This document shows positions 19,787-44,690 of a DNA stretch of 64,000 bases, piece after piece. The position numbers and the translations under genes were made by a program. Source of the DNA: Psammoneis japonica. Lineage: Eukaryota. The stretch is from positions 679,681-743,680 of the forward strand of contig QPGO01000023.1 in NCBI GenBank assembly GCA_008632985.1. The letters run 5' to 3'. The notes beneath the pieces were generated by a model. That model worked only from the letters and a program-made list of their open reading frames with translations. It was not told the DNA's origin and made no database searches. Numbering within the stretch: position 1 is the first letter of the stretch; each line of letters opens with the position of its first letter.

Positions 19787-19789
19787 CCC

Positions 19790-21899: not shown

Positions 21900-24079
21900 C
21901 GTTGAGGCGAGCGCTTGGCGCGCGCGCACACACCTCGAAAGGCAACTGCCGTTACCACCACCAACGACACCAGTGGCATCACCGAGCCTGCTGCCGCCGA
22001 TGATACCTCCGCCGCTCCTATCGACTCCAACGACCCTCCCATCGACTCTGCCTCCGACAACCATACGCCCTCCACCACCTTCAAATGCATGTTCGACACA
22101 AATCACCCAACCATGGAACCGGGCCCACTCGACCCTGATGCAATCACCCGCATCATCACGCAAACGCTCACTCACCACGCCGACTGTGAGCCTCTCACCA
22201 TCAAACTGTGGGATGTCCAATGCACCTCCACCACAGACATTAACTGCAACACACCATGCAAAACCAAAAATTGGCACTCACCATGCGACATCACCCTCAT
22301 CCCAGCTGCCAACGAAGAGCAACTCGACTTCCAGCTTTTCCACGAACAAGCCATCCGCCTCGTCCAGAATTGGCACGCCACCCCACATGCCACTTTCATG
22401 AACTTACCACCAACGACCAATGCCCACACTGCATCCCTTCCACTTGCCCCCTGGAATTTGCCACTGCCGAGCCGTGGGTCGAACACTGCACACCTCGCAT
22501 CCCTGCCTTCAACAACTTCAAATGCTCCGCTTGTGGCATCCTTGCTGGTGCTTCTCCCAACTGCCATGGTCCCACACACTGCACCATGGAGTTCCTGCTT
22601 GCATGCCTCCACAACCACATCCTTGCCCTCCTTCCCAACCAGGACCCACCTGGAGCCACCATCCAACCAGAGTTCCGCACCTGTGAAACCTTCGTCAATC
22701 ATGTTGGTCTCCGCCCAGCCCGCTGGAAAGGCCGCCGCACCGGACCCTCTGTCAACATCCACTGTGCATGCACCCCCACCGACACTGCTTGGAATGCATC
22801 AACCAGGCTCCTCAATCCACCCGGCAAGGAGTGCAGCAAATTCACAGTCTGCAACATCCCGTTTGCCGTGCTTCCCTTCCCCACTGACACCAACAACGCC
22901 GACTGCCTCGCCCAGCAACTCCTCGCAATTGACCAAGGCCCTGCACAAGCACACTGTGTTCTCACTGCATGCCTGCACACCATCACTGATGCCGACATGG
23001 AGCACAATCTTGCCACCCCACATTGCACCGCCGCCACACCCGTCTTCCTGCCCCATGACAACGCCCCTGCGCACTTCAAACTCCCATTCAAACCCCACCC
23101 CCAGACCATCCACCTCACCAACAGAAATCTGCATGAATGCCCTGGGTTCCCAGCTGACCTCCTCAGCAACATCTGCATGCTGGGACCTCTCCCAAACGAT
23201 CCACCCACCTCCACACCTCAGCCCACACTGATCCCATCACCTCACTGCACCAAAGCCGCCCAAGCTCCACCAGCCCCTGCCATCTCCAGCCTCTCTCGCA
23301 CTGCCTGCACCTCCCTCTCTGCCACGCGGCAATTCCCACCCACCAACATCCCTGCCACCACTGCCCGTGCCTCTCCCAACCCCCGTGCGCCACCTGCTTG
23401 CCCTCCTCCTCAACACCGTTGTTCTCCTGGGCGTGGCGCCCCTGCACCCGGCTGTGGCGGTCGCGGATCCAACCCCAGAGTGAACCCTGGCTGCTCCCAA
23501 CCCCGCCACTCCTCCTCCACATCTGCCAACTCCACATCCAACCCTCCATCCTGGACCCTTGTCAGCCGCAAATGCCGCAACACCAACAGCACCCCACCTG
23601 ACCCCTTTGACACCATCCTCAATGCACCCATCCCTCCGTCCCAATGAGACATCGACAGAGACTGTGTGTCCAATGATGCATGCATGGACAACCTCACCCT
23701 CTTCGGCAAAGACGATGACCCCGATGACAACACCAACGCCATGAATGTGATGTCACAACACGACATCGACCACTGCGCCACCCTCACCACATGGGTCCAC
23801 ACCCATTGCCCTGAGTGCCTTTGAGAATGGAAGCACGCTAAAGCTCAGGCCATTGAAGACAACACCGATCCGCAATCTTTCCACCAGCATCTCCAAGAAT
23901 GGAACCCCCAAGCACCATGTGTCTGGAGTGCCCACACTGTGAATGGTCTCCACCGGAAAATGCCACCACCCAAGACCTCCCCAAGGCAGTCCGAGCTCAC
24001 CTGCGGGCCGAGCATAAAACCCCAGACCTGCGCTTTCTCCCACACGACTTCCTCTCCCAAGCCAACCTGCACTCGTGCC
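21900..24079 (+). mobile_element. 5' part of a decayed CRE-like non-LTR retrotransposon (ORF1-like region and C2H2 finger)
   Basis: Long C/A-rich frameshifted ORFs, then CPHC...HLRAEH...FLSQANLHSC, cut at 24080 by an LTR; same strand and composition as 26590-28935. Confidence 0.6.
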
Positions 24080-24971
24080 TGACAGACATCCGAGATGGGG
24101 AGCACACTCCCTTGTGTCGGACAGACCAGCATGGACAGCATGGAGAGATCCGATGATCTCTCCTTTGCTCACTTTCTTTCTCATCTAGCACACAATTGTC
24201 ATCTGTCCCAGATGTCCATTAGATTGTCCCGACACCGCTAGTCCACAAGGTTGTGAGCAGCAGTGCGCTGTTCCTCTTCCTCCACGCTCCTCTGTTGCAA
24301 TGCCCACTGTGTGATTTGGTGATTTTTCTTCATTGAAATCGTCATCATTGTCAGCCATTTTTTCACCTCTCGATTTGTGATCAAATGACCACCGCAGAAC
24401 ACACACCAGAGCTCTGTGCAGGAATTTGATTTTTTCCCACGCAACCATGGTGAACAAAAATCAAAACACCGTCGATTTGACCAAGATCAAGACGATGCGG
24501 GTTGAATTCAGCCCACATGATCTCTCACCCAATGCACACCGTCACCTGAATGCTCTTTGTTCCAACAAGATGCCTGCTCCTGAAGATCTTCTGGATGGAT
24601 TTGCTCCTCAAGGCCTCAAGAGCGACGCTGTTGCTGTCCTCCATCACAAGATCGTTCACAATCTCATCATCCCCCAAGCTGCCCTGACCAAAGATCTTGC
24701 GCGCATTGGACTGATCATTGAAAAGGCCCCTCTCTTTGTGGCCATCCCTCAAGACTCCCCGGTTCATCTGAACCTCAGTGCTCTTCAGAAGGCTGTGATC
24801 AAAGCGATCTCAGAGAACGATGACACCACAAAAGTGTGTGTTGGGACTTTACGTTTCCATTCAGCACTGTGATCGCTGGGATGATGTCTCAGATGATCCG
24901 CATCCAGACCCACCGCCCACCTCAAGTTCTGCATCCCCGCCGGTTGCTGCCACAGGTCCCACTCCTGAAGA
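24080..24971 (+). mobile_element. Ty1/copia-like 5' fragment: ~168-bp LTR (24080-24247), PBS and start of gag-like ORF
   Basis: TG...CA-bounded segment followed by A+GGTTGTGAGC (24249-24258), one change from GGTTATGAGC, the complement of the tRNAiMet anticodon arm used as half-tRNA primer by copia; ORF MVNKNQN follows. Confidence 0.6.
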
Positions 24972-24974
24972 TTG

Positions 24975-26350
24975 TTTTGGTGTGGGTGGCTCTTGATCAA
25001 CTCATGCGGACGCTTCGTCCAAATCGGTGAGATGTCAAAGAGAATCATCTTGATGGCAGCATGTCCATTGCCACAGCATTGACGAATGATGTCAGGGTGC
25101 TTGGAGTCTGCCGGAAAGATTCCAACCTTCTGAATGTGCTGGAAGACAGTCAGTTTCATTCTGTCAAGTGGCACTCTCATCCGGAGTGGGAGATCATCAG
25201 TTGGATCATTGCCACATGTGAAGCCCCAGTTTCCACCGTCCTTGATAAAGCATCACAGAGGGTGCATGCACACACCACAAGCCGAGGCCTGTTGGGTTGC
25301 AGCAGTGTGCTGTGCACGGATTCCTTGAGGGGAGATGTCCTCACAAGTGAGAGGATCACAAAGGAAAGACTTGGCATCCCAATCAATGTGATGAACAAAG
25401 AGAGAACCATCCGCAAGGATTGGACGCTCAGTGCCATCTTCACAACAAAGGTTTCCAGACTTGTGGGGTGCTGGTGATTTCCCTGGCACTGCTTTCCCGG
25501 CTTCCTTGCGTTGACAGCAAGCTGGTGCATCCTTTGGAAGTCCTTTTGGATTGAAGGTGTGTGGAGCACTGGCGGCAGTCAAGGAAGAAGCCGCACCAGC
25601 AGCAGTCATGACAGACGGCAAAGGAGATGGTGCTGCAGGAGCAGATGTCTTCAATGTGTTTGTCACAGCTTGCTCAGGCTGTTTTTAACCAGGCAAATGA
25701 GCAGCTGAGGCCTTGGCAAAGTCTTCAGGAGTGGGACCTGTGGCAGCAACTGGCAGGCATGCAGAACTTGAAGCAGGCAGTGGGTCTGGATGCAGATCAT
25801 CTGAGGTGTCTTCCCAGCAATCACAACACCAAAAACCAGGGCTGAAATGGAAACGCAAAGTCCCAACATGTGCTTTTATGGCATCGTTGTTCTCTGAGAT
25901 CACTTTGATCACAGCCTTCTGAAGAGTGCTGAGGCTCAGACGAACCAGGGAGTCTTGAGGGATGGCCACAAAGAGAGGGGCCTTTTCAATGATCGGTCCG
26001 ATGCACGCAAGATCTTCAGTCAGGGTGGCTTGGGGGATGATGAGATCATGAACGATCTCATGATGGAGGACAGCAACAGCGTCGCTCTTGAGGCCTTGAG
26101 GGGCAAATCCATCCAGAAGATCTTCAGGAGCAGGCATCTCATTGGAACAAAGAGCATTCAGGTGACGGTGTGCATTGGGTGAGAGATCATGTGGGCTGAA
26201 TTCAACCCGCATCGTCTTGATCTTGGTCAAATCGACGGCGTTTTGATTTTTGTTCACCATGGTTGCGCGGGAAAAAAATCAAATTCCCATGCAGAGCTCT
26301 GGCATGTGTTCTACGGTGGTCGTTTGATCACAAATCGAGAGGTGAAAAAA
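24975..26350 (-). mobile_element. Second, inverted and longer copy of the same copia-like gag region
   Basis: 25722-26350 is the reverse complement of 24358-24971; reading continues with GVCMHPL*CFIKDGGNWGFTCGNDPTDDLP...CCGNGHAAIKMILF; runs into the N gap. Confidence 0.65.
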
Positions 26351-26534
26351 NNNNNNNNNNNNNNNNNNNNNNNNNNNNNNNNNNNNNNNNNNNNNNNNNN
26401 NNNNNNNNNNNNNNNNNNNNNNNNNNNNNNNNNNNNNNNNNNNNNNNNNNNNNNNNNNNNNNNNNNNNNNNNNNNNNNNNNNNNNNNNNNNNNNNNNNNN
26501 NNNNNNNNNNNNNNNNNNNNNNNNNNNNNNNNNN
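26351..26534. other. Assembly gap (N run)
   Basis: 184 N bases. Confidence 1.

Positions 26535-26581
<47 letters not shown>
26535..26581. repeat. (CA)n microsatellite
   Basis: Pure CA run next to the gap. Confidence 0.95.
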
Positions 26582-26583
<2 letters not shown>

Positions 26584-26589
26584 AAGTCA

Positions 26590-28935
26590 ACTCTGCTCTC
26601 ACAGCCACACACCCACCCCACGGCACCACCTGGCCTGCTGCATTGCAGTGGCTCCACACTGTCGAGCTCATGCCCCCACCATTCCGTGCCTCCACATGCC
26701 ACAAGCTGTCTCCCTCCATGCACCACAAAGTCTTCACAGCACCACACCACATCCTCACCTGGACAATTGAATCCATCAAGCCCCTGCAACTCGACTCCAA
26801 CAACCCAGCCCCACCCCATGAATGCACGTCCACACCCTTCTGGAAACTGCTCCTTCTCTTCAAAGCACTCATTCTTGCTCCGCCTTGCTGCTCCCCCACC
26901 ACAAACCCCAAACGCCGCCCATCCGCTTCCTCTGTTGCCTCAACATGCCTCAAACTCTTCCGACAAGGGTGCATCTGCAAACTGCATGACACGGCACACA
27001 CCACCACCCCTCACTCAGCTCCCAACACCCACGCCCCTGACTTCTCCACTTCCACCTGCTGCCGTGTGGCTCAAGCATCCACAGACACCGACAACTTTGG
27101 CGCAGCTTGCCACCGCGTCACCTCCAACCTCCCAGTTGCCACCATTGATGATGCCCGCCTCCAGCTCATCCACAAACTGCACCCACCTCACGCACCATGC
27201 CCACCCCAAGCGCCCACCACCAACACATGACACTCCACGCCCCCCCCCCCATTCCCTCCATGCATCTCCGATGACCACCTCTTTGCTGCCCTCAGCAAGT
27301 GTAAACCCGGCACTGCCACCAGCCCATGCGCTGACTCCACCGACCTCCTCAAAGGCCATGCCCTCTGCAAAACAAGCACCCCCAAGCAGCTGCAACTCTG
27401 CCCGCACCTTGCCACCTTCAAGGAATTCTTGATGATCCTCCAAACCAATTCCGTCCCCCCCTGACATCCAGCACATCCGCCTCCGCCTCCACCATCCCCT
27501 TTCTTGTCTCTCAACTAGCTCGCTCCTTTGATGCGCAACACACGGACTGACTGCAGGCCATGATGACCCCCTCAAACTCCCACCCTTCTGCGCTTGCTTC
27601 CTCCGCACTTGGGCCACCTCCTGCCACCCCTTGCGCCTTTGTCAGGTTTTTCAGCACTGCAGAAAAGCTGCCACACACATCCTCGACCCCCCCCACCCTC
27701 CCCAAAGGCCTTCGTCAAAACACACCCGCTGCGCAACCTTTCCCACACCCTTTGTCATGCACACTTCCAATGCATGCTCGAAGACCTCCATCTGCATGGA
27801 CCATTGCACGTCACCCATGCACTCCCGTCCCTTCTCTCTCCACTTAAAAGTCTCACACTCCACCCCCTTGCTTGCTTGCCACCTCAACAATGCCTGAACC
27901 CTGAGCAGTTCCACCTCATGCTACAATGCAAATTACGGCTCCCCATCTCGCCCCACCAACTCGAATCTACCTCTTGCCCCTCTTGCTCTGGCACCATTGA
28001 CCCATGCGGTGACCATGCCTTCTGTTGCCGATCCCTCAGACACAAAACAACCATGTCCAATGCCATCCGCGATGGCCCACACGCTGCTTTCCAAACACTT
28101 GCCCCACTCTCTGGCATCTGTGCTGACTCTTCCGCCGCACACCATGAACCAACCAACCTGATGCCTCATTCACCCCTCAAATGCCCTGCTGATGTGGGCA
28201 TCCAACTTGCTCCAGCCGCCTCTGCTGCCTCCCCTCTTGGCCACCGACACCTCACTGTTGACGTCACTGTCCCTGAACCTCCCCCATTGCCTGCTCCTGG
28301 CTTGCCTGCCCCCACCCACAACCCTCATGCCGAGGCACACCACACAAGCACAAAACAGAAGTTCAATGGAACCCATGAAACTCAAAATGAAGCAACCCTC
28401 ACATCCGCCCTTAACAACGCTGGCATCCACCTCATTCCCTTTGCTGTTGACCATCTGGGAGCCCCAGGCTACTTTGACCATCGCCTTCTTTTTGGCACCA
28501 ACCAAGACCTCCCCATCCCTGCTCCACCCGCCCCCCACCTTGGAACACCGAAACCTGTTTTCAACACCCAGCTGCCCATGCCACATGTGCATGCACCCGG
28601 AACAATCCCCATCTGCCATCCTCCCTGCCGCCACTGCCACTCAGCAAACCATCTCTGCTGAATGCTTTGGCCCAACCCACCACTCTTCAACACCGTCACA
28701 ATGGGGTCCACAGAGCCTGAGCCTTGCAATTGCCAAATCGCTTGCTGACCAACTGGCCCACCACTCCACCAAACTGCAATCTCAAACATCAAACCCCAAC
28801 TTGAAATCCATCCCTTTTCCTGCCTGCATGACTCAGTTCCACCATTGCTCCATGTGTCTGTCCCTCCCCCCACGCCACCAGGTGATGTTGCACGTGAACT
28901 CCTCATGTGCGCGTGCTGCCAGGCAGTTTCCCTGA
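26590..28935 (+). mobile_element. 3' part of CRE-like non-LTR retrotransposon with CCHC finger and restriction-like endonuclease; RT core largely deleted
   Basis: FWKLLLLFKALILAP, KPGTATSPCADSTDLLK, LQCKLRLPI, CPSC...DPCGDHAFCC, NAIRD, CPADV...LTVDVTV, LIPFAVDHLG. Confidence 0.8.
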
Positions 28936-29639
28936 CCAATGAAACATCACTGATCTGCACTGCAATGGAGAAAAGGACACGTGCTTCACATTGCTCCATC
29001 TTTCACTGGCAACGGGGAACCCAGACACACGATCATTTGCTGGGGTGGTGCAAACATCACCTGACATGATGATCCCCACTTCCGAGTCTCCTTTTGGCCT
29101 GCCCCCCTCTGCGGAGCTTTTGTCCGCTCCCTGCTGGGTTGTTTTTCAGCCCTCACCGTTGGTTCTCTTTTTCATTTGGGATCAATTGCTCTAAATTGCT
29201 GGACTTTGGTCAAGAAAATTCCAGGTTCTCTGTCTGGCAGCTGGGCCTGGCTTGCTCAGGTCCCAGACAGCATGTTTTGCCTTGTGCAGCGGTGGCTCTA
29301 AGATGGCTGCTCTTTTCTTCTTGCACAGGAGGCAGCAGCATTGCAGTTGTTTTGCACTGCAAGAGCACCTTGCAGCCAGCCACTCTTGTGCCAGTGCTGT
29401 GGCTGCTGCTGCCATTGTTGCTGGGCTTCTGGGTTCACACAGGGCCTGGTGGGCAGCCAGCAGCCAAAAGCAGCAATGTTTTTTGCTTTTCGCCATTGGC
29501 TGTCAAGCCCTGCAGCCCAGCTCCATTTCCCCATGACTTCGCTTCCATTTCTTCCTTGGCCATGCATGGCCCTGTCAACAGCCCTCCATCAGTTGTGCAT
29601 GACCACCCTGTCAACTGCCCTTCATCAACTGTGCTTGAC

Positions 29640-29815
29640 CCTTTTGCTTCTTTCTTTCTTTCTTTCTTCTTTCTTTCTCTCCTTCTTTCTTTCTTCTTTC
29701 TTTTGTTCTTTCTTTTGTTCTTTCTTTTGTTCTTCCTTTTGTTCTTCCTTTTGTTCTTCCTTTTGTTCTTCCTTTTGTTCTTCCTTTTGTTCTTCCTTTT
29801 GTTCTTCCTTTCTTC
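29640..29815. repeat. Pyrimidine-rich tract with 12-bp tandem repeat (TTCTTCCTTTTG)n
   Basis: Directly visible; reads as KEEQ repeats on the minus strand. Confidence 0.9.
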
Positions 29816-30049
29816 TCTGCTGGATTGAGAAAGCCAACCAGCAGTTTTCCTGTGGCACAATCTTTGACCAGGCACCTGCCAGCCCTTTTGCTGACTGTTG
29901 AACAGAACAAAAGTTGGTCATGCTGTGAGGTCATGAGTGCCTCCTCTGGCTGTCACTTTAGAACAAAACTTGTCAGCCACCTTTCTGCCTGCCAATGTTT
30001 TCTCAGTCACCACCCCACCACTGCCACATCCTCCTCCCACCCAACTCTC

Positions 30050-31804
30050 CACAGACCTTTCTTCATTTCAAGTTCGACAGACAGACTGTACGTCAAGCGG
30101 AATTTGGGCAGAAAAGTGCAGCAAGTGGACCGGACGCACGTGCGCACGTCTGCATGTGCCGGTGCGGTGCGCAACCTCTGGGGCCCCACCGGTGCGAAGC
30201 AGGGCGAATGGCGGCAACTTTAAAAAGCATCCCAACAATGCCAATGGCCACAGCAGAGCTCTGGACAAAACGCAATGAGCTGCCATCTAGCAGAGCCAAA
30301 CAGTTCCTTGCTTGTGTGTCACAGCACCTGAATTAGACTGAAATGCAAATGCATGCAGAGCAGAGGCATCGCACGCAAACGACGCGAAAAAGCGGTCCCT
30401 GAGCTGCACGTCCAACAATGAGGATGAGCGCGAGATTGATCGCGCTCACTGCAAATGCATGTGAACCAAACAAATCAAACACACAAATGTTGTCCAAACT
30501 TGTTGTGTGAAAGAAATCCATGTGTTGTTGTTGAGTGCAAGCCGAGGAATCGTGCACAAACGACGCGAAAGCGGCTCCAACGCGTCCAACAACGAGGATG
30601 AGCACGAGATTGATCGCGCTCACTGCAAACACATGTGAACCAAACAAATCAAATGCACAAATGTTGTCCAAACTTGTTGTGCAAAAGCCAATCCAGGTGT
30701 TGTTGTTGAGTTCGAAGCAGAGGCATTGTGCACAAACGACTCGAAAGCGGCCCCAACGCGTCCAGCAATGAGAATGAGCACGAGATTGATCACGCTCACT
30801 GTGAATGCACATGAAGCAAACAAATCAAATGCACAAACATTGTCCAAACTTGATGTGTGAAAGCCAATCCATTGTTGTTGAGTTCAAAGCAGAGGCATCG
30901 TGTGCAAACGACACGAAAGCGGCCCCAACACGTCCAGCAACGAGAATGAGCACGAGATTGATCACGCTCACTGCAAACACATGTGAACCAAACAAATGAA
31001 ACACACAAATGTCATCCAAACTTGTTGTGCAAAAGCCAACCCAGGTGTCATTGTTGAGTTCCAAGTCCAGCCATTGCACACAAATGACGCAAGGGCTGTT
31101 GCAGCATGCCCAACAACGAGATGAGCGCGAGATTGATCACGCTCAACTCTAAGGATGCATGACCAAACAAATTAAATGCACAACAATGGCCCAACATTGT
31201 CGCATGTAAGCCAGTCCAGGTGTTTTTGTTGAGTTCCAAGTCCAGCCATCGTGCACTGATGACAAGAAGCGGTTCCTCATGCACCCCAGATTGATCAGCA
31301 GCGCTGGTCACCGAGGTCGACCCCACAATCCACAGCTCAATCCATTTCACTCACAACATGTCAACAACGCGAACAGTGGAATGTCAACACCTTGCTCTAG
31401 AACATGAGACGAAATGAACAACCGTGAGCAAGACAAGTTTGGGCAACAACACACCCAAAAAGCATCAAAACACGAAACTGCACCACATGATGCACAAACA
31501 CAACTCAACACAATAAATTTTCTTACCACAACATGTGTGTGCACACATCAGCCACAGGATGGGGATTGTCACCGGTGTGGAGCCGATCGTCTTCGAAATG
31601 AGCGTCGCAGAGACGAACGCCATTTTCACCATTGGTGATTTTTGAATTTGTGCTCTCGTCGTTGGAAAAGCACCAGAAGCTGTGTACGGGGCGCGGTCTG
31701 ACATCGCAGGGGGAGAGTTGCAACAAGAAATTCTGCCCAATTTCCGCTTGACGTACAGTCTGTCTGCACCCAGGCAAAAATCTTGAAATGAAGAAAGGTC
31801 TGTG
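30050..31804. mobile_element. Non-autonomous DNA transposon with bipartite TIRs
   Basis: Outer perfect 23-bp IR CACAGACCTTTCTTCATTTCAAG (30050-30072 / 31782-31804) and inner 36-bp IR with one mismatch (30078-30113 / 31731-31766). Confidence 0.8.
30350..31260. repeat. ~175-bp tandem repeat, about 5 copies, inside the TIR element
   Basis: GAGATTGATC(A/G)CGCTCA recurs near 30432, 30606, 30782, 30954 and 31128. Confidence 0.9.
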
Positions 31805-34800
31805 TCACTGGCCTGGCACTCTTCTTCTCTGCCACCCCTTCCAACCTCTGACACGTGCATGCCCTGCACTCCCCTCTTGCAATGATGGCATCCTGGCTGC
31901 TGGAGTCCAGTTGATGTTTTGTGACATGCTTGCATGCACCGCTGTCATGGAACTTCAGGAGGCAGCCCATGCATTGCAGCCCTTCTTGAGGTTGCCATTG
32001 ACAAAATGAAGAATGCACTCATCAAACAAAACAGAGCAGAGGAAGGGGTGACTGCAAGCACAAACCACAAGAACATGACCTTCTTTGTTCTCAGCCGGTG
32101 TGCACAAGCAACTAAATTCATGCGGGGTGGCACTGGCGCCATTGGGTGCCAGATTGACCTTGAGTGGGCAAGGGTTCTCTGAGGGTGTGAATGGCTGACA
32201 ATGGTGCAGAAGGTTGTCTCTAACATGTTTTGGTGCTTGTCAAGAATGAAACTCATCAACAAACAAAATCATTGCATGTGTGCTGTCTCTGTCCACCGAT
32301 CTTCAATGTTCTCACTTGTTGGCCATGCATTCTTAGAAACACGCTCATTCACAAACACTTTGATTGTGAAACTTGCAACAAACAAAATCATTACAAACAT
32401 GCTAACTCTGTCCAGTTGTTAATTGTGTGTTTTTACAAATGTCAAGTCATGAATGATTTGACCATTTTTTACCTGCGTGGCCCGATTCGCGGTCAGCGGA
32501 TGCACATTTTTTCACACCACACCACACCACAGACACCAACAGCCGCAATGATGTTGACACGACCCATGTCAACAACGTTGCAGAGGTAAGTTCTTTCTTT
32601 GTTTTCTCATTTACACCAATTGCATGCTCACCAAAGATGTTGTTTGTGCTTTGTTGAAGCTTCACAGGTGGATTGATCGTCTCGTGTGGTCGATTGTTGC
32701 ATCTGTGATGTTGGTGTTTTTTTTTTCGCAGCGTTTGCACCACCACAGCGCATCCGTTTGGGAGCCTTGTGCCTCGTCCCACCCTGCATCCTTTGGCACA
32801 CCTGTCATGCATGTTAACATGGATTTGTGACGTGCTTGACATGTTTTTGAAGGTCTTGGTCGGCTCGTAATCACAGCATGTCATTTTTTGGCGACAACAA
32901 TTTCTTGAAAGTGTTGCATGCTGTGGGAACAAAACGATGCGATGGAGTCTCGGGGACACTCACGATGTTGGCATTTATCAGACAGCCTTCCCACAGTCCA
33001 AAAAAGGCAATCCCATGAGCACAACATAATTGTTTGAGCATTGGACTCGTTTTGATGAAACTTGCACACCTCATGAGCCTTTTTTTGTGCATCTTGTTCA
33101 TGCGTGTGGGCATCTGGTCCTTTTTGACCCTTTCTTCCTACTCTGCAATTGTGCCATCTTTATGATCTGAGGCACAATGTCTCCCACATCATTTTGGGTG
33201 ATCTTGTCAGTGCAACTGCCAGACCAGGTTTTGCACTGGGCAAAACGGAGAAGTGGAGGCTTGTGTGGCCGGGCTCCTTGCCTGCTCTTGGATGCGTGGA
33301 TGCAACGATCCGCTGGTGGCATTTGAGGCCATGAAATTTGCTGGGGTGACTCAGAACTGCCTCGGAAAGGTGACCCAGTGAGCACACTGTGACGTGTGGC
33401 CTCAATGGATTGTTGTTGTGTGTGTTGTTCTACTCACATTTTCATTTTGCCTGTCATGTTTTCAGCATGATCATCTGGGACTGCAAGTGCTGAAAGTGGC
33501 CTTTCCATGCCAACACTCTACATGACACAAGTCCTTTGACAACACTTGTTTGTTTGGGGAGTCAGATCTTGGAGCTTTTGGCATCTAGTGGGTCTAGAGA
33601 GGCATGAGTGTTGGATGAAATGTGGGCCAGGTTGTGAATGGAATTTGGCTGACTTTTGCTGTTTTTTTCTCGACGGTGTGGTTGGTCAGTGCGCGGGTTT
33701 GTGAGTGTGGATGGACTCTCCATTGAGGGCCGCTGTTCTGGAATGCTTCACTCTAGAGTAGAACTTGGTGCAAAAGGTAAGAGATCCATCATCATTTGTG
33801 ATTTTCAACTCATCGTGGTGTTTTTGGCGTTGTCCAATGAAAAGTTGGATGATCCATTTAAAAGACTCACAGCCTTTTGCTGTTCTTTAGAGGTGTGATT
33901 GTGCAGCTCTTGACATTCCAGTTTTCTTTAAGGGTGGGATTGCATCACATGTCATTCGAGAAGTGTTGTCACAGTGTTCTTGCTTGCGGGTTCAGGCCTT
34001 GTCCTGACAGAGACTGGAAAGAATGTCTCATCTTCTTCCCTCTTGCCATTGCTGCAAATGAAGACAATGGCCAGAGTTCATCAGCCACACATCCTCAGTT
34101 CCAAGGGGTTCACTCTGATGGCAAGTTTGATGACATGTCTTGCTGGTGTCTCCAGTTGGAGCAACACACTTGCTGGGGGGTGGTGGTGCATGATGCACAG
34201 GCCAGTGCCACTTGAGAAACTAAAATGGATCATGTGGTGGTGCTCCAGATCATCATCATCACCATCAATGCACAGTGGTTTAAGTTGCTGCCTGCATGAC
34301 ATGCACCCCAAATGTGCTCAGCCTGCATTTGTTGAGTGGGTTCTTGACCCAAGTGTGTTGTCTTTGCAATCTTGATTTGGGAAGCTGCAAGCCATGTCTT
34401 GGGCAGCAACAGCAGCCCCTTGCATGATTTCTCCACACAAGAAGATGCCCAGCTGCACAAGGTGTGAAAGCGCCACACCCACAGATGTGGCAAAAGAGGT
34501 TTGCAGCTGTCTTGGGATGGCATTGGAGGACTCCAGTGGATCCCAGAGGATGCAACGACAACAATGGTTGGGAAGCAAAGGCTTTGTCTTGTGTCCATGC
34601 AGCCCTTTGTCTCTCTGACATGACTGGGTTTCTTGGCCCAGCCACCCTGCCTGCAAAAACAAGAAAACCATGTGTGTGACAGTGCAAGTGCTCTGTTGTC
34701 TTGGGGCGGCCTTGGATGACTTGATCGGGACCCAGAGAATGCAACACCAACCATGGCTGGGAAGCAAAGGCCTTGTCTTGTGTCGGTGTGGCACTTGGAC

Positions 34801-34809
34801 CATGCAACT

Positions 34810-37450
34810 CCCAACCATGGCTCTTTGGGGTTTGCCTTGGGTCCACCAAAGACAGTCAATGATGTTTGAACAACAGTTGTTGGGTGGGTGGGTGCACTCA
34901 TGGTGCTGTTTCACTTCAGAAGTTGGGAATCAAGTCTCACCTGACATTTTGTGAAGTGACATGGGCTGCAGCTGAGGCAGGTTGGCTTTGAAACTCCCTG
35001 CCATGGCACTTTAAGTGTCACCTTGGGTCCACAGAAGACATTCAATGGTGTTTGACAACAGTTGTTTGGTGTGTTGGCACATTCATGATGTTGTTTCACT
35101 TTTGATTTTGGGGCTCAAGTCTCACCCTGACATTTGTGAAGTGACATGGGCCACAGCTGATCCATGGTGGCTTTGCCACTCCCTGCCATTGCTTTTGAAG
35201 CATCACCTGGGGTCCACTGCACACATTCAATGGTGTTTGACAATGGTTGTTGTGTGGGTGGGTGCACTCATGGTGCTGTTTCACTTTTGAATTTGGGAAT
35301 CAAGTCTCACCCTGCTGGCAGTCATGTGAAGTGACATGGGCTGCAGCTGAGCCAGGGTGGCTTTGCTGCTCCCCCACCATGGCTCTTAAAGTGTCACCTG
35401 GGGTCCACTGCAGATATTCAATGGTGTTTGACAACAGTTGTTGGGTGGGTGGGTGCACACATGGTGCTGTTTCACTTTTGATTTTGGGAATCAAGTCTCA
35501 CCCTGACATTTTGTGAAGTGACATGGGCCACAGCTGAGCCAGGGTGGCTTTGAAACTCCCTGCCATGGCTCTTGAAGTGTCACCTGGGGTCCACCAAAGA
35601 AATTCCGTGGTGTTTGACAACAGTTGTTTTGTGTGTTGGTGTGTTCATGATGTTGTTTCACTTCAGAAAATTGGGGCTCAAGTCTCGCCCTGACATTGTG
35701 AGGTGACACAGAGCCAGAGTTGCACCACGGCAGCTTTGAAGCTTCTAACCATGGCTCTCAAAGTGTTGCCTGGGGTCCACTGCAGACATTCAAGGGTGTT
35801 TGACAACAGTTGTTGGGTGGGTGGGTGCACACATGGTGCTGTTTCACTTCAGAAGTTGGGAATCAAGTCTCACCCTGACATTTTGTGAAGTGACATGGGC
35901 TGCAGCTGAGGCAGGTTGGCTTTGAAACTCCCTGCCATGGCACTTGAAGTGTTGCCCGGGGTCCACAGAAGACATTCAATGGTGTTTGACAACAGTTGTT
36001 TGGTGCGTTGGCACATTCATGATGTTGTTTCACTTTTGATTTTGGGGCTCAAGTCTTACCCTGACATTTGTGAAGTGACATGGGCTGCAGCTGAGCCAGG
36101 GTGGCTTTGCCACTCCCTGCCATTGCTTTTGAAGCATCACCTGGGGTCCACTGCACGCATTCAATGGTGTTTGACAATGGTTGTTGTGTGGGTGGGTGCA
36201 CACATGGGCTGCAGCTGAGGCAGGTTGGCTTTGAAACTCCCTGCCATGGCACTTTAAGTGTCACCTTGGGTCCACAGAAGACATTCAATGGTGTTTGACA
36301 ACAGTTGTTTGGTGTGTTGGCACATTCATGATGTTGTTTCACTTTTGATTTTGGGGCTCAAGTCTCACCCTGACATTTGTGAAGTGACATGGGCCACAGC
36401 TGATCCATGGTGGCTTTGCCACTCCCTGCCATTGCTTTTGAAGCATCACCTGGGGTCCACTGCACGCATTCAATGGTGTTTGACAATGGTTGTTGTGTGG
36501 GTGGGTGCACTCATGGTGCTGTTTCACTTTTGAATTTGGGAATCAAGTCTCACCCTGCTGGCAGTCATGTGAAGTGACATGGGCTGCAGCTGAGCCAGGG
36601 TGGCTTTGCTGCTCCCCCACCAAGGCTCTTAAAGTGTCACCTGGGGTCCACTGCAGACATTCAATGGTGTTTGACAACAGTTGTTGGGTGGGTGGGTGCA
36701 CACATGGTGCTGTTTCACTTTTGATTTTGGGAATCAAGTCTCACCCTGACATTTTGTGAAGTGACATGGGCCACAGCTGAGCCAGGGTGGCTTTGAAACT
36801 CCCTGCCATGGCTCTTGAAGTGTCACCTGGGGTCCACCAAAGAAATTCCGTGGTGTTTGACAACAGTTGTTTTGTGTGTTGGTGTGTTCATGATGTTGTT
36901 TCACTTCAGAAAATTGGGGCTCAAGTCTCGCCCTGACATTGTGAGGTGACACAGAGCCAGAGTTGCACCACGGCAGCTTTGAAGCTTCTAACCATGGCTC
37001 TCAAAGTGTTGCCTGGGGTCCACTGCAGACATTCAAGGGTGTTTGACAACAGTTGTTGGGTGGGTGGGTGCACACATGGTGCTGTTTCACTTCAGAAGTT
37101 GGGAATCAAGTCTCACCCTGACATTTTGTGAAGTGACATGGGCTGCAGCTGAGGCAGGTTGGCTTTGAAACTCCCTGCCATGGCACTTGAAGTGTTGCCC
37201 GGGGTCCACAGAAGACATTCAATGGTGTTTGACAACAGTTGTTTGGTGCGTTGGCACATTCATGCTGTTGTTTCACTTTTGATTTTGGGGCTCAAGTCTC
37301 ACCCTGACATTTGTGAAGTGACATGGGCTGCAGCTGAGCCAGGGTGGCTTTGCCACTCCCTGCCATTGCTCTTGAAGTGTCACCTGGGGTCCACTGCATG
37401 CATTCAATGGTGTTTGACAACAGTTGTGTGGTGTGAAGTGATGTGGGCTG
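34810..37450. repeat. ~186-bp satellite, about 14 monomers, with a 1243-bp higher-order duplication
   Basis: GTGAAGTGACATGGG recurs every ~185-190 bp; ORF track entries repeat at a 1243 offset (35015/36258, 35703/36946). Confidence 0.95.
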
Positions 37451-37459
37451 CAGCTGAGC

Positions 37460-38830
37460 CTGCCTGGTGGCAAAGGAGGTTTGCAGCTGTCTTGGGATGG
37501 CATTGGAGGACTCCAGTGGGTCCCAGAGGATGCAACAACAACAATGGTTGGGAAGCAAAGGCCTTGTCTTGTGTCCACACAGCCCTTTGTCTCTCTGACA
37601 TGGCTGGGTTTCTTTGCCCAGCCACGCCACCTGCAAGAACAAGAAAACAATCTGTGCAACAGTGCAAGTGCTCTGTTGTCTTGGGGTGGCCTTGGAATGC
37701 TTGATCAGGTCCCAGAGAATGCAACAACAACAATGGCTGGGAAGCAAAGGCCTTGTCTTGTGTTGGTGCGGCACCTTGTCTCTCTGGCATGGCTGGGTTT
37801 TGGCCCAGCCAAGAACCGTCCTGCTGCAAGAAAGATGGGAGAACTGTCTGTGTGACAGTGCAAGCACTCCTTGTTGTCTTGGGACATTTGCAAGAGACTC
37901 CATTGGGTCCTCAAGGATGCAACAACAACAGTGGTTGTGAAGGAAAAGCCTTGTCTGGTTGTGAGTTTGGTTGCATGTCTTGGTGTCTCCAACTGGAGCA
38001 ACAAGCTTGCCGAGGGGTGCACAGCACATGAATGATTTTGGAAGCTGCAAGCCATGCTGTGGGCAGCAGCAGCAGCCCCTTGCATGATCCCTCCACACAA
38101 GAAAATGCCCATCTGCACAAGGTGCTGTGGGGAGGCATCAGCCAACCTGCAAAGAAAAGGGAACCATCTGTGTGATGGTGCAAGCACTGCATTGTCTTGG
38201 GATGGCTTTTGGCAGCTCAACTGGCAAGAAAGACAAGGGAGTCATCTGTGTGACAGTGCAAGCACTCCGTTGTCTCAGGATGGCTTTTGGTGGCTCAACC
38301 TGCAAGAAAGACAAGGGAGCCATCTGTGTGACAGTGCAAGCACTCAGTTGTCTGAGGACAGGCACAAGAGACTCTGTTGGGTCCAGGAGGAGGCAACAAC
38401 AATGGTGGTTGGGAAGGAAAAGCCTTTTGTCTTGGGCCAATGCAGCCCCTTTTCTTTCTGATGTGATCGGCTTGCTTTGGTGATGGAGCCACCACCCCAC
38501 CTGCAGAGGCAAGGGAGCTTTCTGCAGACAGCGCCAGTGCCCAGACGTCTTTTGCTGCCCCCCCCCCTTGGGTGACTCCATTGTGTCCCAGGAGAGCCAA
38601 CAACAACCTTGGTTGGGGAGCAAAGGCTTGTTTTGTGTCAACAATGTGGCCTCTTTTCTTTCTGATGACATGACTGGGGCCTTCTTTGGTCCAGCCAGCG
38701 CACCTGTGCAGATGCCATTGAGCCATCTGTGTGACAGCACAAGTGACCAGTTGTCTTGGGATGGCTGTGGGAGGAGACTCCATTGGGTGCCAGGGCATGC
38801 GCAACAACAATCATGGGAACTTTGTGCCAG
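37460..38830. repeat. Second ~180-bp repeat family; related copies also at ~34130-34810
   Basis: Recurrent GTGACAGTGCAAG...TTGTCTTGGG...CAACAACAATGG.TGGGAAGCAAAGGC; 34490-34790 matches 37470-37780 and 34381-34460 matches 38041-38120. Confidence 0.85.
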
Positions 38831-41800
38831 TGCATGAGATTGCAATGGCTGAAGGCAGAGTGGCACAGGCCTGTGTTTGCATGGTCGGCAGTGGCTTTGT
38901 CATTGTGAAGGCAGCAGCAGTGGTGGCAGTTGCTGGGTTTGGACCATCAGCCGGCACTGCAACAGCTCCAGCAGCAGAGCCTTGGTTTCTCTGAGGGCTC
39001 CTGCTGCTGAGCTTTTGTGGCTGAGATTGAGCTTGAGATTTGCCAGCTCAACCTGCACAGCAAGACTGTGAAAATTTGCATCTTAACAAGAACACATTGA
39101 CACAATGAAAGATGAGAAATTGACCAACTGCCGACACACATGTAAAACCTAAATGACTGGATGATTCATTGAGTCATTTCAAATCATTCAAACCTTCAAA
39201 ACGGAATGTGAGCATGGAATTTTAAAACAAAATTGTCACTTGAAAATGATGCTGACAGGAATCACCAGGCAGACAGGCTCAACATTGCTGCAAAAACATG
39301 AGCCATCATTTCCTCACAAGACACAAAACACAAGGCCCATCAAACATCATGACAATGACACAAGCAGCAAGGGAAGACAACAGAAGAGCACCAGGGGGAG
39401 GAGGACAATGTGGAACACAAGGCAAGAGAGAGGCAGGAACTGAGTCTGTGAGTGCACAGAGTTTGGGCAACAATGCAAACAACTGATGCTTTGGCCAATC
39501 TTTCAACTCAGACATGATGTTGATGACATGCAAAGGGAGATGGAAGGGAAGACAGCCCTGCAGGGGCCACACAAAGGTGAGCAAAGCACATTCAAAACAA
39601 TGCAAATGCAATGCTCTCATCTGTTGCGTGCTCTTTTCTCTTCTTTGCAGGCAATGCTTTGGCAAACTGGTTCGAAACACAAAAGAGACATGGTCGTGCG
39701 CAAAGGTGAGCAGAAGCACTGTTTTTGTCAAGACAAGCCCACTCAAAAATAAAACATGTGCAATGCTCTGATCTGTTGCAAGCTCTTTTCTCTTCTTTGC
39801 AGGTGAAGCTTTGGCAATCTGGCATGCCAAGCAAAAGAAACAAGGTCACGACATGGAATGAACGATGGGATTTTGTGCATGGCAAGTGAGAGCGGATGCA
39901 AGGGTCAGCAAAATGAGCGAAGCATCATGCCATCACTGCGGCACAGGAGAACCGGCAGGAGACAGGAAAAAGCCAAGGAGAGAAGAGCAGGAAACAGGAA
40001 GCAAAAATGCGTTCACTGCAGAAATGACAAAACACAGCTGGCACAATCACATTGCAAGAAACACACAGCCAATGTACGAGCATCTTAATGCAACAAATGA
40101 ATGTTGCAGTTGTCAGAAATGAACAATGTTGCAAAGCAGTCACAATTGCACCCTTGTTGAGAAGTTTCATTGACAACTGTTTCCCACTTAAAAGGTCGCA
40201 TTAATTGTGAACGTGAACTGAATAATTTTGAAATCATTGTGGTCGTCATCTTGTCAAGATTGAATGAAGAATTAGAGTCATTTTCATCAAGTGTTAAATC
40301 CCACTTGGCATGTTGAAACAATTGTTAAAATCGATTTGTGCACAATTGATGAGCACTTGTCAAGAACACAGGATTCTCAACAAGAGCAAAACGAGCTCTG
40401 AACAAGAGCCATGACATTTTCCAGATGCATCTTGTTCGCCAGTGCAGGTGATGTGCGCACCTGTGCCCAGCTGCACACTGTGCACAGCACTCCTTTGTCT
40501 CTCAAATTTGATTGCAACTGCCTTGAAAGCCTCATGATCAAGGTCAAATGGAGCAGATGGTGAGACCCATGAAGGTGCATGCAGTGCATTCTGAGCTGAG
40601 TTCAGAGTGGCAACACCACCACGCTCCTCCCCAAAATCAGAGCAGTCCAAAGCAAATGGTTCCAAAGGTTGCTCACTGATTTCCTCTGCCCTCCCGCGGT
40701 CTTGATCCCACCCTGGATCATCATGTGCAGGAAACATGTCATTGTCTGGGAGAGCATTGGTGTCAGCAGACGTCAAAGAAAGTGATGGTTGGATGTCTGC
40801 AAGAGTTTACATGGAGAAAGAGGTTTCTGAGGGGGGGGGGGGGGGGGCGACAGAGTGGGTGGCCCCTCTTTTGGTGTCACGTTGCCATCATTTGTGTTGT
40901 CTTGGTCAGAGGTGAAAGGAAGGACTGCATTGGAGATCTGAAGCTGGCTGCTGCAGCCTGGCTGAAACTCCAGTGCACTTTTCACAAAATGGAAGAGCAA
41001 GTCCATGCTGTCCTGTGGGCAAGGTTCCTCAGTTGCCATGAAAGGAAGAGGTGCGCTGCACTGCTCAGCACTTCAGGAACTGACAAAAGCAGATGTGAAA
41101 GCCATTGACACACAGATTGCTTTGCAACACTGGGCAGTCATCAAAAAGATGATCGCTGGTGCAGACCACATGGATGTTTCACACAGCCTCATTTGGAGAC
41201 ACGTTGACATTTAGCGCCAAAGCCAAACAGGCGTGGTGCAAGATGGGCCTCATCTGTGTGTGTCCATTGAGAGCGGGGCTTGATGCGGTGTCAAGTGAGT
41301 CCAGGTTGGCATCAAGTGGGTCTTTTTCTTTGTGTTCCAAGAATCAACCCTGCGTTGCAGCAACTGCAGGGACTTTGGCGTCATTTGCACTGGTGGTGAC
41401 AGGGGGCTTGCCAGGGCAGTTGTTGGTGGCACCCAAAATGCAAGGGAGCCATCTGACTGGCTGAGAGATGCAGCAAATGTTTCCACTGTCTGTTTCTTCT
41501 TGGTGTGCTTGCACACGCATGCTGGGGAGTCTTGGTCATTGTGTGCAACATGAGCCAAGAACTTGGAAGAATGCTCGGCACTCTTGAGGAAAGGGATCAT
41601 CTCCAAGTGGTCACCCAAAAGAGGCAGGAGTCAGCATCAAAAATGTGTGCGTGGAGTTGCAAAAAATCCTTGAACACAATGAAGCAGCTCACAACAGAAC
41701 CCATCACAAAACACTGGATGCCCCTGAAAAAGGTTTGTGTCAAAGCATTCTTGCAGCCATTGCCACAGCAGGAGGCAACAATCCAATGCCACCAGTGGCT

Positions 41801-41999
41801 GTTCTTGGGAAACTGTCAGCATGGGACAACAGCTTGTGCAGCACATGTGATGTTCCAAGCAACTCACACGCACCTGATGTGGTGGATTGTCAAGGTGGCA
41901 GTTTCCAAAGCAGGCAAAGCCCCAGTCTCCTCAAAAAGAAGCCATCACAAAAGATCTGCTGTGCGTGCTGGCACCAAGATTTTTCTGCATGCTTTCACA

Positions 42000-42440
42000 A
42001 AGAGCTTTGCCAGCTGTTTTCCATTTTTCACAGAAACTTTGGTGTCAAGATGCACTGAACAACAAAAACAAGTGGGGCAAGATGCAGCACTGAAAGAGTG
42101 AAGAAAGTGAGACATGATGTCAGGAGAGTGGTGATTTTTGCATCACAATTTTGAGGGGCACAAAGGAAGGCAGGGCTGCCAATGGCTGCAAGAAACATCA
42201 TGCCAAAAGCTTTGAATTTGAAGGGCTTGGGGTGTTGGCATTCACACAGCAAATGACCAACTGAGGAGCTGCTCAATTTTTGAGAGATGACAGGGCGGGT
42301 GTGCACATGCATTTTCACATGATGCATGCAGCAGCAGCACAAGAGCCTCTTGAGTTGTTTCATGCTCAGCTTGTCCTGCCCACTGACCCAGCTTGCACTT
42401 TGATGCGCATCAACAGTCACAACATCAAGCTGTCAAACAG
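42000..42440. repeat. Dispersed repeat, diverged copy of ~18830-19290
   Basis: Same shared blocks as the partner copy. Confidence 0.8.
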
Positions 42441-43949
42441 CGTGCACATCAAGGTGCAATCTTCAAGCAACATGTGCTTTTTGGCATTTTGATGACATGC
42501 CAGCAGCATGACATTGGCAAATTCAGAAGCCTCACACCAAGTTGCTTTTGGCTTCTTCTGAACAAAAAGTTTGCATTGTCAGGAGTGGCGATGCAAGGCT
42601 TTTGCTTGTCCTCAGTTCAACTGTGCCAAACATCCAGTGCACACTTGTGGCACTCCAAGCCTCAAACAGAAAACCAGCACACACATGCTTGGGTGGAGAT
42701 GAAGCTTGTGGACACAACAGCTTGCTGCTCAGATGCTGGAAGTTGCAAGAGGGTCCTGGATGAGCCACAAGGATGCACAGATCCATTGGTCCAAGAAACA
42801 AACCACAACCCAGTCAGTTGATTGTTTCCCTGTCACATTGAAAGGGTTGGACCCAACAAGATCTTTGTTTGACATCTTGTTGGCTCCAAATGCCATGTTG
42901 GCAAGAATCTGCACCTCAGTGAACACACACACATTTGTCAAACTTTCCAAGTGTTCCTCCATTTCCAAAAAGTGCAACAGTGGCCCTCACTGCTCTCAAT
43001 GATGCAGCAAAATGCTTTGTCAGACCACTTGCTTTTCAATGTTGTGCAGAACATGCAAGACCTTCCTGCCATCTGACAGTCTGTTGGCGAAACACACTCT
43101 GGCAACTTCAGCTTCTTTTCCAGTTTGTCGTCAGACTTTCATCTCAATTGTTGTGCTTCTTGCCACCATTGCCAGGATCATTGTCACTCAGATTTGATTC
43201 ATTGTCTCTCATTGCCCACTGCAGCTGCCTCCAATCTGTCAATTTCTGTGTCACTTTCTCCATTTTCATCAAGACAAGAATCCACATTGCCAGCATCAGG
43301 ATTTTCTCCAAGCCATTGAGCCCTTCATCATGGTCCCAACCCACCTCAAACTCAACAGCACCACAGCGCAATTGCCACCTGTTGCAGCAGCTGCTGCTGT
43401 CATTGTCAGAGAAGCAACTTTTCTGCAAATTGTGTGGCAACACCCCATCATGCATGCTTCTGAGTCAAACTCAAAGGCAATTTGCACAAATGCAGCTTTT
43501 CATTTCCACCTGATGCAGAAGCTTGGCTGGCCAAGGCTGTGCAGGCAATCTTGCCCAGGCACCCCGGCTCCCTTGAAAGAGCTTGCAGCCAAAGACATTT
43601 CAATGACAAAAGGAGCAACACACGCATTGATGCCATTTTTTGTGACACAAAATGTTGTCAACAAGATGCTCTTGGACAAACCAGCTTTTTTATTTGCCTC
43701 TCTTTTCCCTTTTGTCCCACCACAAGTTTGTTGTGTGCTCATGGTGTCAGCGCTGTGGCATTTTGAAATGCAACAGACTGTTCTCAAAAGCAAAAACAGA
43801 GAGCAATTTGAATGAAGCCAACATTTGACAGCCCTGCTGAGCCATGTTAGAGAAAAATTGGTCCAACTGCCCAGGTGGAAAAATTGAGTGTTGTGGAAAT
43901 TACAAGGCCAGTTTGTGTGCACACACAAGCACAACAGGGGCATGTGGAG

Positions 43950-44690
43950 CTTGAGACCCTTCGCACTGATGTGGTCATGTGTTTGCACATGAGGGCCAGT
44001 CACTCAGGTTACAACTCATCTGTGTGAAAGCCCCACAGCCTGCTGCAGGTCTCATGCTGTGGCTCATGCTGCTTCAGCACAGTGTGCTGATGCATGATCA
44101 TCAGCGCCACCTCCACATGCCAGCCTGCAGATGCATGAAAGCAGCCTCACTGCATCATCATGCCCAGGGGGTTCCCCCCACTGCAATTTCAAACACTTCT
44201 GGCACAAGCAGGAGTCAAAGATGTTCAAACAACTGCAAGAAATCATCAAGCTGCATCAAACTGCTGTGCCAACATTGTTCAAAGTGCAACTCAAGGACAC
44301 CCTCATGGTGTGGTGAAAGCTCAACAGATTGTTGACAACGCCCCAGCTGCAGCCGCACACAGCCTGCACTGTGTGAAGTGTTTCCAGAGTTTTGGGGATG
44401 TCACCCAGAGCTTTGATGTGCCAGACATGCTTTGTGATCTGCCACTTGTTGGAAACATGGCTTCCATTTGAGATCATTTCAGGTCTTGACTGACAGCTGT
44501 TTGTGTGTTGGCAGAATCTCAAAAGACACCTCTTTGATTTTGTTGAGCCAGGCAACAAGTTTTGATTGAGAGCAATGACCCTGGCAAGTTGGACACAAGA
44601 TTTTTTGGTCCATTTTCTGTCACAAAAGTTCATGCAAATGGAGACATTGTGCTGCAAAAAAGAACACACCTCTCGCGCATTTGGGCAAGT
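43950..44690 (+). mobile_element. Decayed Ty3/gypsy integrase fragment
   Basis: FQTLLAQAGVKDVQTTARNHQA...IVDNAPAAAAHSLHC...DMLCDLPL...NDPGKLDTRFFGPFSVTKVHANG matches the gypsy integrase core and GPF/Y module. Confidence 0.8.

Follow-up and report, generated by a model that had tools for sequence, protein, structure and literature searches.

Convergent sister copies of a Ty1/copia element in the diatom Psammoneis japonica record independent mutation of TA steps

The 64,000-nucleotide window analyzed here (Psammoneis japonica, contig QPGO01000023.1, positions 679,681 to 743,680; coordinates below are those of the window) contains a convergent pair of truncated sister copies that belong to a Ty1/copia element of 7 kb; they are joined through 4 bp of microhomology and lie inside a retroelement without long terminal repeats (LTRs). 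After formation of this pair, TA steps of the two arms were changed to TG or CA by a process acting on DNA, independently in each arm. The inversion itself is a bystander that recorded two independent runs of this mutational process, because TA is erased throughout the surrounding repeat island and in non-inverted copies alike. Taken as a whole, the combination of this structure with independent TpA mutation of the arms is in our judgment probably the best explanation of the region.

Layout of the pair and loss of its TA steps

The arms at 24358-24971 and 25722-26350 align in inverted orientation with 89.0% identity over 629 columns with 3 gaps, and a run of N (26351-26534) adjoins the right arm, as the original prediction had described. 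Transitions account for 51 of the 54 substitutions in this pairwise alignment. In an alignment of 30 rows, 51 of the 58 columns that differ between the arms belong to steps that are pyrimidine-purine (YpR) in both, which supports the statement that the arms differ mostly at YpR. All six differences quoted for the arms were located (24386, 24395, 24404, 24417-24420, 24829 and 24835-24838).

The separate spacer of about 750 bp that had been proposed between the arms did not hold up. Mapped on full-length copies, the plus-strand piece 24080-24971 corresponds to element positions 1 to about 910 and contains the 169-bp LTR, the primer-binding-site position, the leader and the start of open reading frame (ORF) 1. 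The minus-strand piece 26350-24968, mapped in the same way, spans element positions about 281-1663 without interruption. Thus, the presumed spacer is the continuation of the second copy, and 24968-26350 is one unbroken minus-strand copy. This 1383-bp match is also continuous in 12 of 28 other loci and in 9 extended copies. The 5' LTR retains 3 TA steps, each in a YTAG context, and the left arm carries a 15-column deletion. Pfam searches of ORF1 and of the arms gave no matches. The features of the region are as follows (observed/expected ratio, o/e; reverse transcriptase, RT).

21900..24079, plus strand: host non-LTR retroelement, upstream part, start approximate; 7 other loci match to about 24079 and resume at 26557-26847
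22001..45000, no strand: repeat island; per-kb o/e of 0.00-0.19 for TA (erased) and of 0.07-0.88 for CG (reduced)
24080..24248, plus strand: 169-bp 5' LTR of the copia copy with TG...AA termini; matched by the two LTRs of full-length copies
24249..24258, plus strand: putative primer-binding-site position; reciprocal GGTTGTG and GGTCATG forms occur within the family
24358..24971, plus strand: left arm, 5' leader and ORF1 start (ATG at 24447), ending at element position about 910
24968..24971, no strand: junction, 4-bp microhomology AAGA/TCTT, found at both breakpoints in intact copies
24972..25721, minus strand: former spacer, belonging to the second, inverted copy (element positions about 910-1663); part of the continuous 1383-bp minus-strand match
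25722..26350, minus strand: right arm, belonging to the second copy (element positions about 281-910), ended by the gap
26351..26534, no strand: assembly gap, 184 N
26535..26580, plus strand: (CA)n run adjoining the gap; it is missing in 5 related host copies, most of which show a short C-rich run instead
26578..28942, plus strand: host non-LTR element resumes, RT to zinc-knuckle/endonuclease region, decayed, end approximate

The arms differ at 35 YpR sites. These comprise 16 reciprocal CA/TG sites, 3 sites with TA kept in one arm, and 16 with CG kept in one arm. A genome search returned 41 matches (40 of 72 candidates scored), and the window was compared with 28 other loci. At 12 of the 16 reciprocal sites CG is present in at most 1 of the 28 other copies, at 3 it is present in at least 8, and 1 site lies between; two of the four sites outside the TA class adjoin an indel. 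The reciprocal sites had been attributed to ancestral CG or TA. TA was found to be the source of most (12 of 16), with three sites of CG type and one unclear, and the contrary case named beforehand, a CG origin of all of them, was looked for and not found.

No TA-intact member of the copia family was present among the 28 loci examined (best o/e in the arm region 0.36). Polarity was therefore taken from column classes, from outside proteins and from other families. At the 24 columns where 70% or more of 40 outside homologues have Tyr, 10 genome copies of the family carry Cys 120 times, His 76 times, Phe 18 times, Tyr 10 times and other residues 6 times. Conserved Tyr was thus replaced by Cys or His in 196 of 230 cases, and Trp was kept in 113 of 117. 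The catalytic Tyr of the RT was scored in 29 of the best 30 among 150 listed RT loci; it reads Y in 15, H in 11 and C in 3, and the CG o/e is 0.75-1.03 throughout. In the polarized comparison of a TA-retaining copy with a relative of 89.6% identity (pair L031 to L057), TA was kept at 8 of 123 sites (55 became TG and 54 CA), CG at 94 of 122, CA at 190 of 206 and TG at 114 of 127. One outside homologue from ENA (P0005) has 6 Cys and 1 His at conserved Tyr columns, the other 39 having at most two His or Cys; the signature may exist in another organism.

Within 10 LTR pairs, 72 of 93 differences are YpR, 56 of these without CG, and 2 pairs of target site duplications (TSDs) differ at a TA step. 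As LTR pairs and TSD pairs differ in this way, the change must have taken place after insertion, in chromosomal DNA. Of 292 columns outside YpR, 7 differ between the arms, so that they rank third in closeness among 435 pairs (median 16%); each arm has the other as its nearest copy. The disagreement at TA-type sites is 11 of 35, as between any two copies (mean 0.38, standard deviation 0.09, 298 pairs). Being this close outside YpR and yet disagreeing like unrelated copies at TA-type sites, the arms were sister copies that still possessed TA steps when the pair was formed. The independent decay of the arms, which had been proposed from their reciprocal sites, is supported by this contrast.

The loss of TA, and with it the YpR pattern, is not a special mark of the pair, since it extends across the island and to the other copies of the family. 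In each kb of 22001-45000 the TA o/e is 0.00-0.19, and it is 0.01-0.03 in 18001-20000; the gene-bearing flanks range from 0.30 to 1.03. The arms (TA o/e 0.03-0.05, CG o/e 0.52-0.59) resemble non-inverted copies, and in 27 of the 28 other family copies the part matching the arms has a TA o/e of at most 0.19. TA steps surviving in the island are YTAR in 49 of 93 and RTAY in 7 of 93 cases, compared to 222 YTAR of 1335 in the flanks.

Several neighboring regions of the window were also inspected. A galactosyltransferase gene at 20200-21700 is spared between two TA-erased blocks, the edges being a few hundred bases wide. At 30050-31804, terminal inverted repeats (30050-30113 and 31731-31804) enclose a TA-erased 175-bp tandem array, probably a non-autonomous DNA transposon. 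An array of a unit of about 185 bp at 34803-37435 includes a 1.26-kb block duplicated at 98.3%, and both TA and CG are nearly absent. Just beyond the island edge, an 893-aa frame on the plus strand (45676-48357) has no Pfam match and contains TA- and CG-rich 207-bp repeats. A 538-aa frame on the minus strand (7825-9441) shows a 7tm_7 chemosensory-receptor match with an E-value of 1.6e-07, which is above the cut-off.

Sequence context, patches and strand coupling

Context counts were derived from 9 polarized blocks of 7 copies. A to G changes occurred at 731 of 1731 As preceded by T, compared to 57 of 2366 after A, 93 of 2730 after C and 29 of 2639 after G. By the following base, the changed As were 288 of 500 before C, 188 of 368 before T, 82 of 302 before A and 103 of 386 before G, i.e. 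a pyrimidine at this position approximately doubles the share. The copia family shows the same preference in what is left: TA was retained in 3 of 1041 RTAY and in 89 of 497 YTAR contexts. An excess of TG over CA (71 to 44 in one patch, 1735 to 1434 in the family) was considered as a sense-strand bias and rejected, as it mostly comes from YTAY and symmetric contexts are near 50:50.

In one young copy, 151 of 165 TA steps were lost over 4 kb and 0 of 75 in the later 1.5 kb, with 26 of 374 CG lost. Several sisters that are 98-99% identical to this patch-mutated copy are almost untouched, and 11 copies at 98-99% identity retain a TA o/e of about 0.78 in their RT part. Since the patches stop inside elements, near-identical sisters are spared and CG is intact, duplication alone is no trigger and loss of CG is not necessary. 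The unevenness from copy to copy in this young family fits an episodic action. In the young copia family (L122-L129, L103-L104), TA loss proceeds from the 5' LTR end 2-4.5 kb inward with CG intact in 4 of 8 compared copies. A general 5'-first polarity was rejected: 4 of the 8 young-family copies show it strongly and 2 weakly, and L132, L133 and L136-L139 of other families keep more TA at the 5' side.

The suggestion that neighboring changes in the same direction reflect strand-processive events was confirmed for directly adjacent TATA steps but not beyond them. Long same-strand runs were rejected for distances of 3-3000 bp (313 family sites) and of 3-300 bp (two polarized sets); the 3-10 bp bin of the 313 family sites is slightly under the null (z -2.2). 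As the direction of change is uncorrelated from 3 to 3000 bp, the changes probably accumulated over many cell cycles. One of the quoted neighbor pairs (24417/24419) consists of one CG site and one TA site. The arm difference at 24835-24838 is a TATA double change that affected opposite strands in the two arms.

For adjacent steps in the family, concordance was 0.707 against an expected 0.573 (n=133, z 5.1), and in one polarized pair it was 8 of 8, a value reached in 2 of 1000 shuffles. Pooling of the polarized TATA sites, this pair included, gave 29 of 31 concordant cases (16 TGTG, 13 CACA, 2 CATG and 0 TGCA). Lone TACA became TGCA 32 times and CACA 23 times, and lone TGTA became TGCA 29 times and TGTG 12 times. 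Because stepwise changes should therefore often yield TGCA, two As (or two Ts) located two bases apart on one strand were often changed together. These same-strand double changes suggest, from sequence patterns, an enzyme with a bystander window of 2 nt.

Origin of the pair and candidate mechanisms

The non-LTR host flanks the insert on both sides and its relatives carry an RT, and hence the predicted nesting within a non-LTR element was confirmed. Its last 5 bases before the insert, GTGCC, are a candidate TSD. The host resumes at about 26578 in the same orientation, leaving about 75 bp unaccounted for. Two relatives share 39-43% with it, and Atlas clusters show RVT_1 on 29-35% of members. The element is a candidate member of the CRE clade, in view of RT and C-terminal motifs in the two relatives. 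A Pfam search of the host in six frames gave no match, and a PDB search with a host relative returned nothing useful.

Full-length copies of the inserted copia element are about 7.05 kb long, with LTRs ending TG...AA, instead of the TG...CA termini expected for Ty1/copia, and a purine tract before the 3' LTR. Two LTR matches were found in 14 of 20 extended loci, with 5 exact 5-bp TSDs, 4 that are one base off and 5 unresolved; at the window locus a single LTR is visible. Domains follow the copia order gag_pre-integrs, SH3_retrovirus, RVT_2, and the outside homologues carry the same set. The Pfam search found no match to the rve integrase core in the family copies. Among named proteins, those of Cylindrotheca fusiformis and Nitzschia inconspicua are nearest (52-53%). 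Five derivatives of 2.5-3.1 kb (L073, L075, L078, L079, L080) have both LTRs and an internal segment absent from long copies, and a small segment is inverted between them. In L080, TA persists in the middle and the 3' part, between two TA-dead flanks.

A chromosomal foldback as origin of the pair is excluded because the host element resumes beyond the gap. Our simplest reading, which we favor by a modest degree, is that cDNA which had folded back, or had been end-joined, integrated once, with the same end of the LTR at either side. Among 20 extended loci, another foldback of this family was detected in L064 (2243-3583 in element orientation, 418-bp arms, 94.7% identity, 13 of 19 differences YpR). 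Some observations weigh against this reading. The second LTR, leader and TSD of a symmetric insertion plus the roughly 75 bp of host would need about 360 bp, more than the gap of 184 N offers; the L064 foldback terminates at a contig end, so that both foldback copies adjoin assembly breaks; and no read piece crossed the junction among those listed (9 of 489, from one run with short contigs). Our literature search found no report of foldback cDNA integration. Both sides of the junction were covered by the window alone (40 of 52 candidates scored).

The pair could instead have begun as two insertions, or as a dimer of full elements joined tail to tail, with the unstable centre then deleted through microhomology. 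This would also give an asymmetric centre with 4 bp of microhomology, which is the usual outcome for long palindromes, and the roughly 75 bp of host left unaccounted for would agree with such a loss. Two separate sister insertions in opposite direction within 75 bp are unlikely, and a dimer with deletion would end in a state indistinguishable from the foldback, so that we regard this origin as possible but rather doubtful. The adjacency of the arms could finally be an assembly chimera of two real copies or alleles lying elsewhere, in line with the gap and the (CA)n run next to the right arm, the end of the L064 foldback at a contig border and the lack of a spanning piece among the read pieces listed. 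The junction lies within contiguous sequence, though, where a 4-bp overlap is probably too little for overlap assembly; the same 4 bp are present at both breakpoints in intact copies, host DNA is in register on both sides, and the arms are mutually closest relatives. Left-arm-specific and spacer-specific read pieces occur at the same depth (50 and 52). A 130-nt read piece of depth 50 is identical to the left arm, which indicates that the variants of this arm are fixed DNA, the run possibly being the assembly's own sample. A chimera appears improbable. The divergence of the arms had been held to argue against an assembly artefact: it does establish that the arms are two real copies but does not demonstrate their adjacency.

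With respect to the mutational process, a chromosomal activity converts A:T to G:C within TpA steps of either strand, giving TG or CA. It prefers 5'-TAY-3', acts on transposons in kb-scale patches without requiring CG loss, and nearly reaches saturation, and a slower decay of CG to TG or CA, presumably by deamination of 5-methylcytosine, supplies the remaining YpR differences. The candidate we consider to have about an even chance is a DNA adenine deaminase of the TadA/ADAT fold acting on silenced domains. Drawn to such domains, it would, in the course of many cell cycles, convert A to inosine where the DNA is locally open, and a single visit would often change two neighboring As of one strand, turning TATA into TGTG or CACA. 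Several points count against this candidate and its same-strand window. A to G cannot be separated from T to C on the opposite strand by sequence, so that the adenine chemistry is our assumption, and the 5 PF14437 deaminase matches in the genome appear housekeeping-like, with none tied to the process. In the copia family, TATA steps agree less strongly (102 of 142 concordant, 84 being expected, at 15 site pairs) and TGCA occurs 26 times, and the polarized TATA counts were taken from two other families (7 copies, each set against one reference copy), in which sites recur among copies.

Some loci touch on the enzymes in question. L111 encodes an ADAT2-like protein with HAE, PCxxC and a downstream Asn-bearing motif, the position of which was judged by motif; a gene of this type is expected for tRNA editing, so that its presence does not tie it to the process. 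A 491-aa frame in L110 (1381-2853, minus strand) contains a zinc deaminase motif joined to a second domain that we take to be a 2-oxoglutarate/Fe oxygenase. The genome has 27 matches to C5-methyltransferases, which could account for the CG decay. Among methyltransferase-like copies, L117, L118 and L119 are themselves mutated (TA o/e 0.03-0.09), and the five longest matches are unaffected.

The same process could act on the thymine side, by TET/JBP-type oxidation of T and mispairing with G, or via an adenine adduct such as N6-methyladenine. All counts fit, since A to G and T to C at TpA concern the same base pair, and the same-strand TATA double changes would suit two Ts equally well. A 5'-T preference, which TadA shows, is typical of TadA/ADAR-type deaminases, and near-complete clean transitions would better suit inosine than weakly miscoding thymine products; we therefore rate this alternative as unlikely, though not negligible. 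The preference of ADAR for a 5' U has been stated (bioRxiv 10.64898/2026.01.13.699255). ADAR-like editing of element RNA that is copied into cDNA would share this preference, and an error-prone polymerase with a WA signature would explain tandem same-strand changes by gap filling. Either is very improbable, given that TG and CA are about equal and interleaved within single copies, that the LTR-pair and TSD differences require change after integration, and that A to G was far rarer after A than after T (57/2366 against 731/1731). Decay of methylated CpG in all reciprocal CA/TG sites would agree with the CG depletion of the island, the 16 of 35 differing sites that keep CG in one arm, the 3 reciprocal sites of CG type and the 27 C5-methyltransferase matches. 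As sole cause it is refuted by the 12 of 16 reciprocal sites without CG in other copies, by the replacement of Tyr codons with Cys and His codons, and by TA loss where CG is intact.

It had also been proposed that the structure yields a hairpin or dsRNA nucleating silencing. In its strongest form the pair would be a locus resembling Mu killer, in which read-through from the left LTR gives a hairpin RNA and siRNAs that start silencing and mutation of the family. The LTR is directed into the structure, a folded model of 1491 nt forms a long predicted duplex (-901.6 kcal/mol, no shuffle control), the arms still had TA steps when the pair was formed, and in L080 TA is gone from about the first kb and retained downstream. 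The upstream flank of L080 is TA-dead as well, however, and in TA and CG content the arms are like non-inverted copies. In 10 long copies and the two window copies 3-12% of TA is kept per kb over the first 7 kb, with no minimum in the arm region, and other families, the host element and tandem arrays are equally affected. Thus, of this proposal the foldable hairpin stands, in the model, but its role in silencing gained no support: the arms are no more mutated than non-inverted copies, TA erasure in the spacer equals that in both, and the TA loss is not focused on the arms. We consider such an initiating locus hardly probable. The same low estimate applies to fold-back copies as suppliers of guiding double-stranded RNA for a base editor.

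Known systems and significance

The diatom CoDi elements resemble the family described here in their direct LTRs, short TSD and order of pre-integrase, SH3 and RT domains. Their LTRs end in TG/CA in 23 of 26 families, with 3 exceptions (PMC2806351); the LTRs of the present family end TG...AA, and the copy in the window is truncated and inverted. For Mu killer of maize, a partial inverted duplication of a transposon, a hairpin transcript has been proposed (PMC3440606). The pair likewise is a partial duplication, in inverted orientation, of the 5' part of a transposon with an unpaired centre and a potential hairpin. It differs in that Mu killer derives from a DNA transposon, whereas the pair derives from an LTR retrotransposon, has arms 11% apart and is known from DNA alone. 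Taken alone, the pair is a minor rearrangement of a transposon; it is of value as an internal control, as it consists of sisters that were identical at birth and mutated independently.

Repeat-induced point mutation (RIP) of ascomycetes, which is premeiotic and depends on RID/DNMT4, changes particular dinucleotides by transitions on both strands, crippling transposons and leaving genes alone, and it creates TpA from CpA. The process is named in PMC9998398. The changes in Psammoneis share the dinucleotide specificity, the action on both strands and the crippling of transposons with sparing of genes, but the chemistry is opposite: TpA is removed, and CA and TG were mostly kept in the pair L031 to L057. 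Furthermore, near-identical multicopy elements are largely spared or patchily affected, and the inverted arms show no excess. RIP was rejected, both as a CpA change that raises TpA and as a process triggered by duplication.

The mutator also distorts dating by LTR divergence. With YpR accounting for 72 of the 93 differences in LTR pairs, ages would be inflated several-fold where it is present. In two araphid diatoms, older LTR age patterns were taken as ancient insertion events, in a main text that, as far as it was available, has no mention of TpA or hypermutation (10.1101/2025.10.24.684338).

The closest parallel is Bigelowiella natans, in which integrated DNA of nucleocytoplasmic large DNA viruses (NCLDV) as well as of virophages undergoes A:T to G:C hypermutation at TpA only (Mettrop et al., bioRxiv 10.64898/2026.01.13.699255). 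In that alga TpA-poor windows are enriched in RT and DDE domains, the de novo rate is raised about 1000-fold and active in some lines only, and an ADAT2-type deaminase was proposed (bioRxiv 10.64898/2026.01.13.699255). Both cases involve A:T to G:C changes at TpA on both strands restricted to regions of foreign DNA, and by analogy in these sequence features the process in Psammoneis would seem to work like that in Bigelowiella. In contrast, the targets here are copia and non-LTR elements and tandem arrays of a diatom, and erasure is near complete (o/e below 0.1, compared to 0.45 in their NCLDV region). The TAY preference, the kb-scale gradients within elements and the same-strand TATA double changes are not described in the main text of the preprint as available to us, in which the word diatom has 0 occurrences. 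We found no literature report of TpA hypermutation in diatoms, most subscription journals being outside the coverage, and in print TpA-directed A:T to G:C mutation is on record only for the integrated viral DNA of this one rhizarian alga. Tentatively, and with somewhat less than even confidence, we propose that diatoms have a natural DNA adenine base editor that is directed to silenced transposons, recognizes a TAY motif with a same-strand window of 2 nt and is shared with rhizarian algae, acting as a heritable defence that erases TpA and with it Tyr codons. Such a natural deaminase, if it exists, would be relevant to genome defence and to base editing, and the TAY motif together with the TATA double changes provides a substrate signature for candidate enzymes. 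Near-saturated TpA mutation in diatom transposons would extend the process known from Bigelowiella to a second major lineage.

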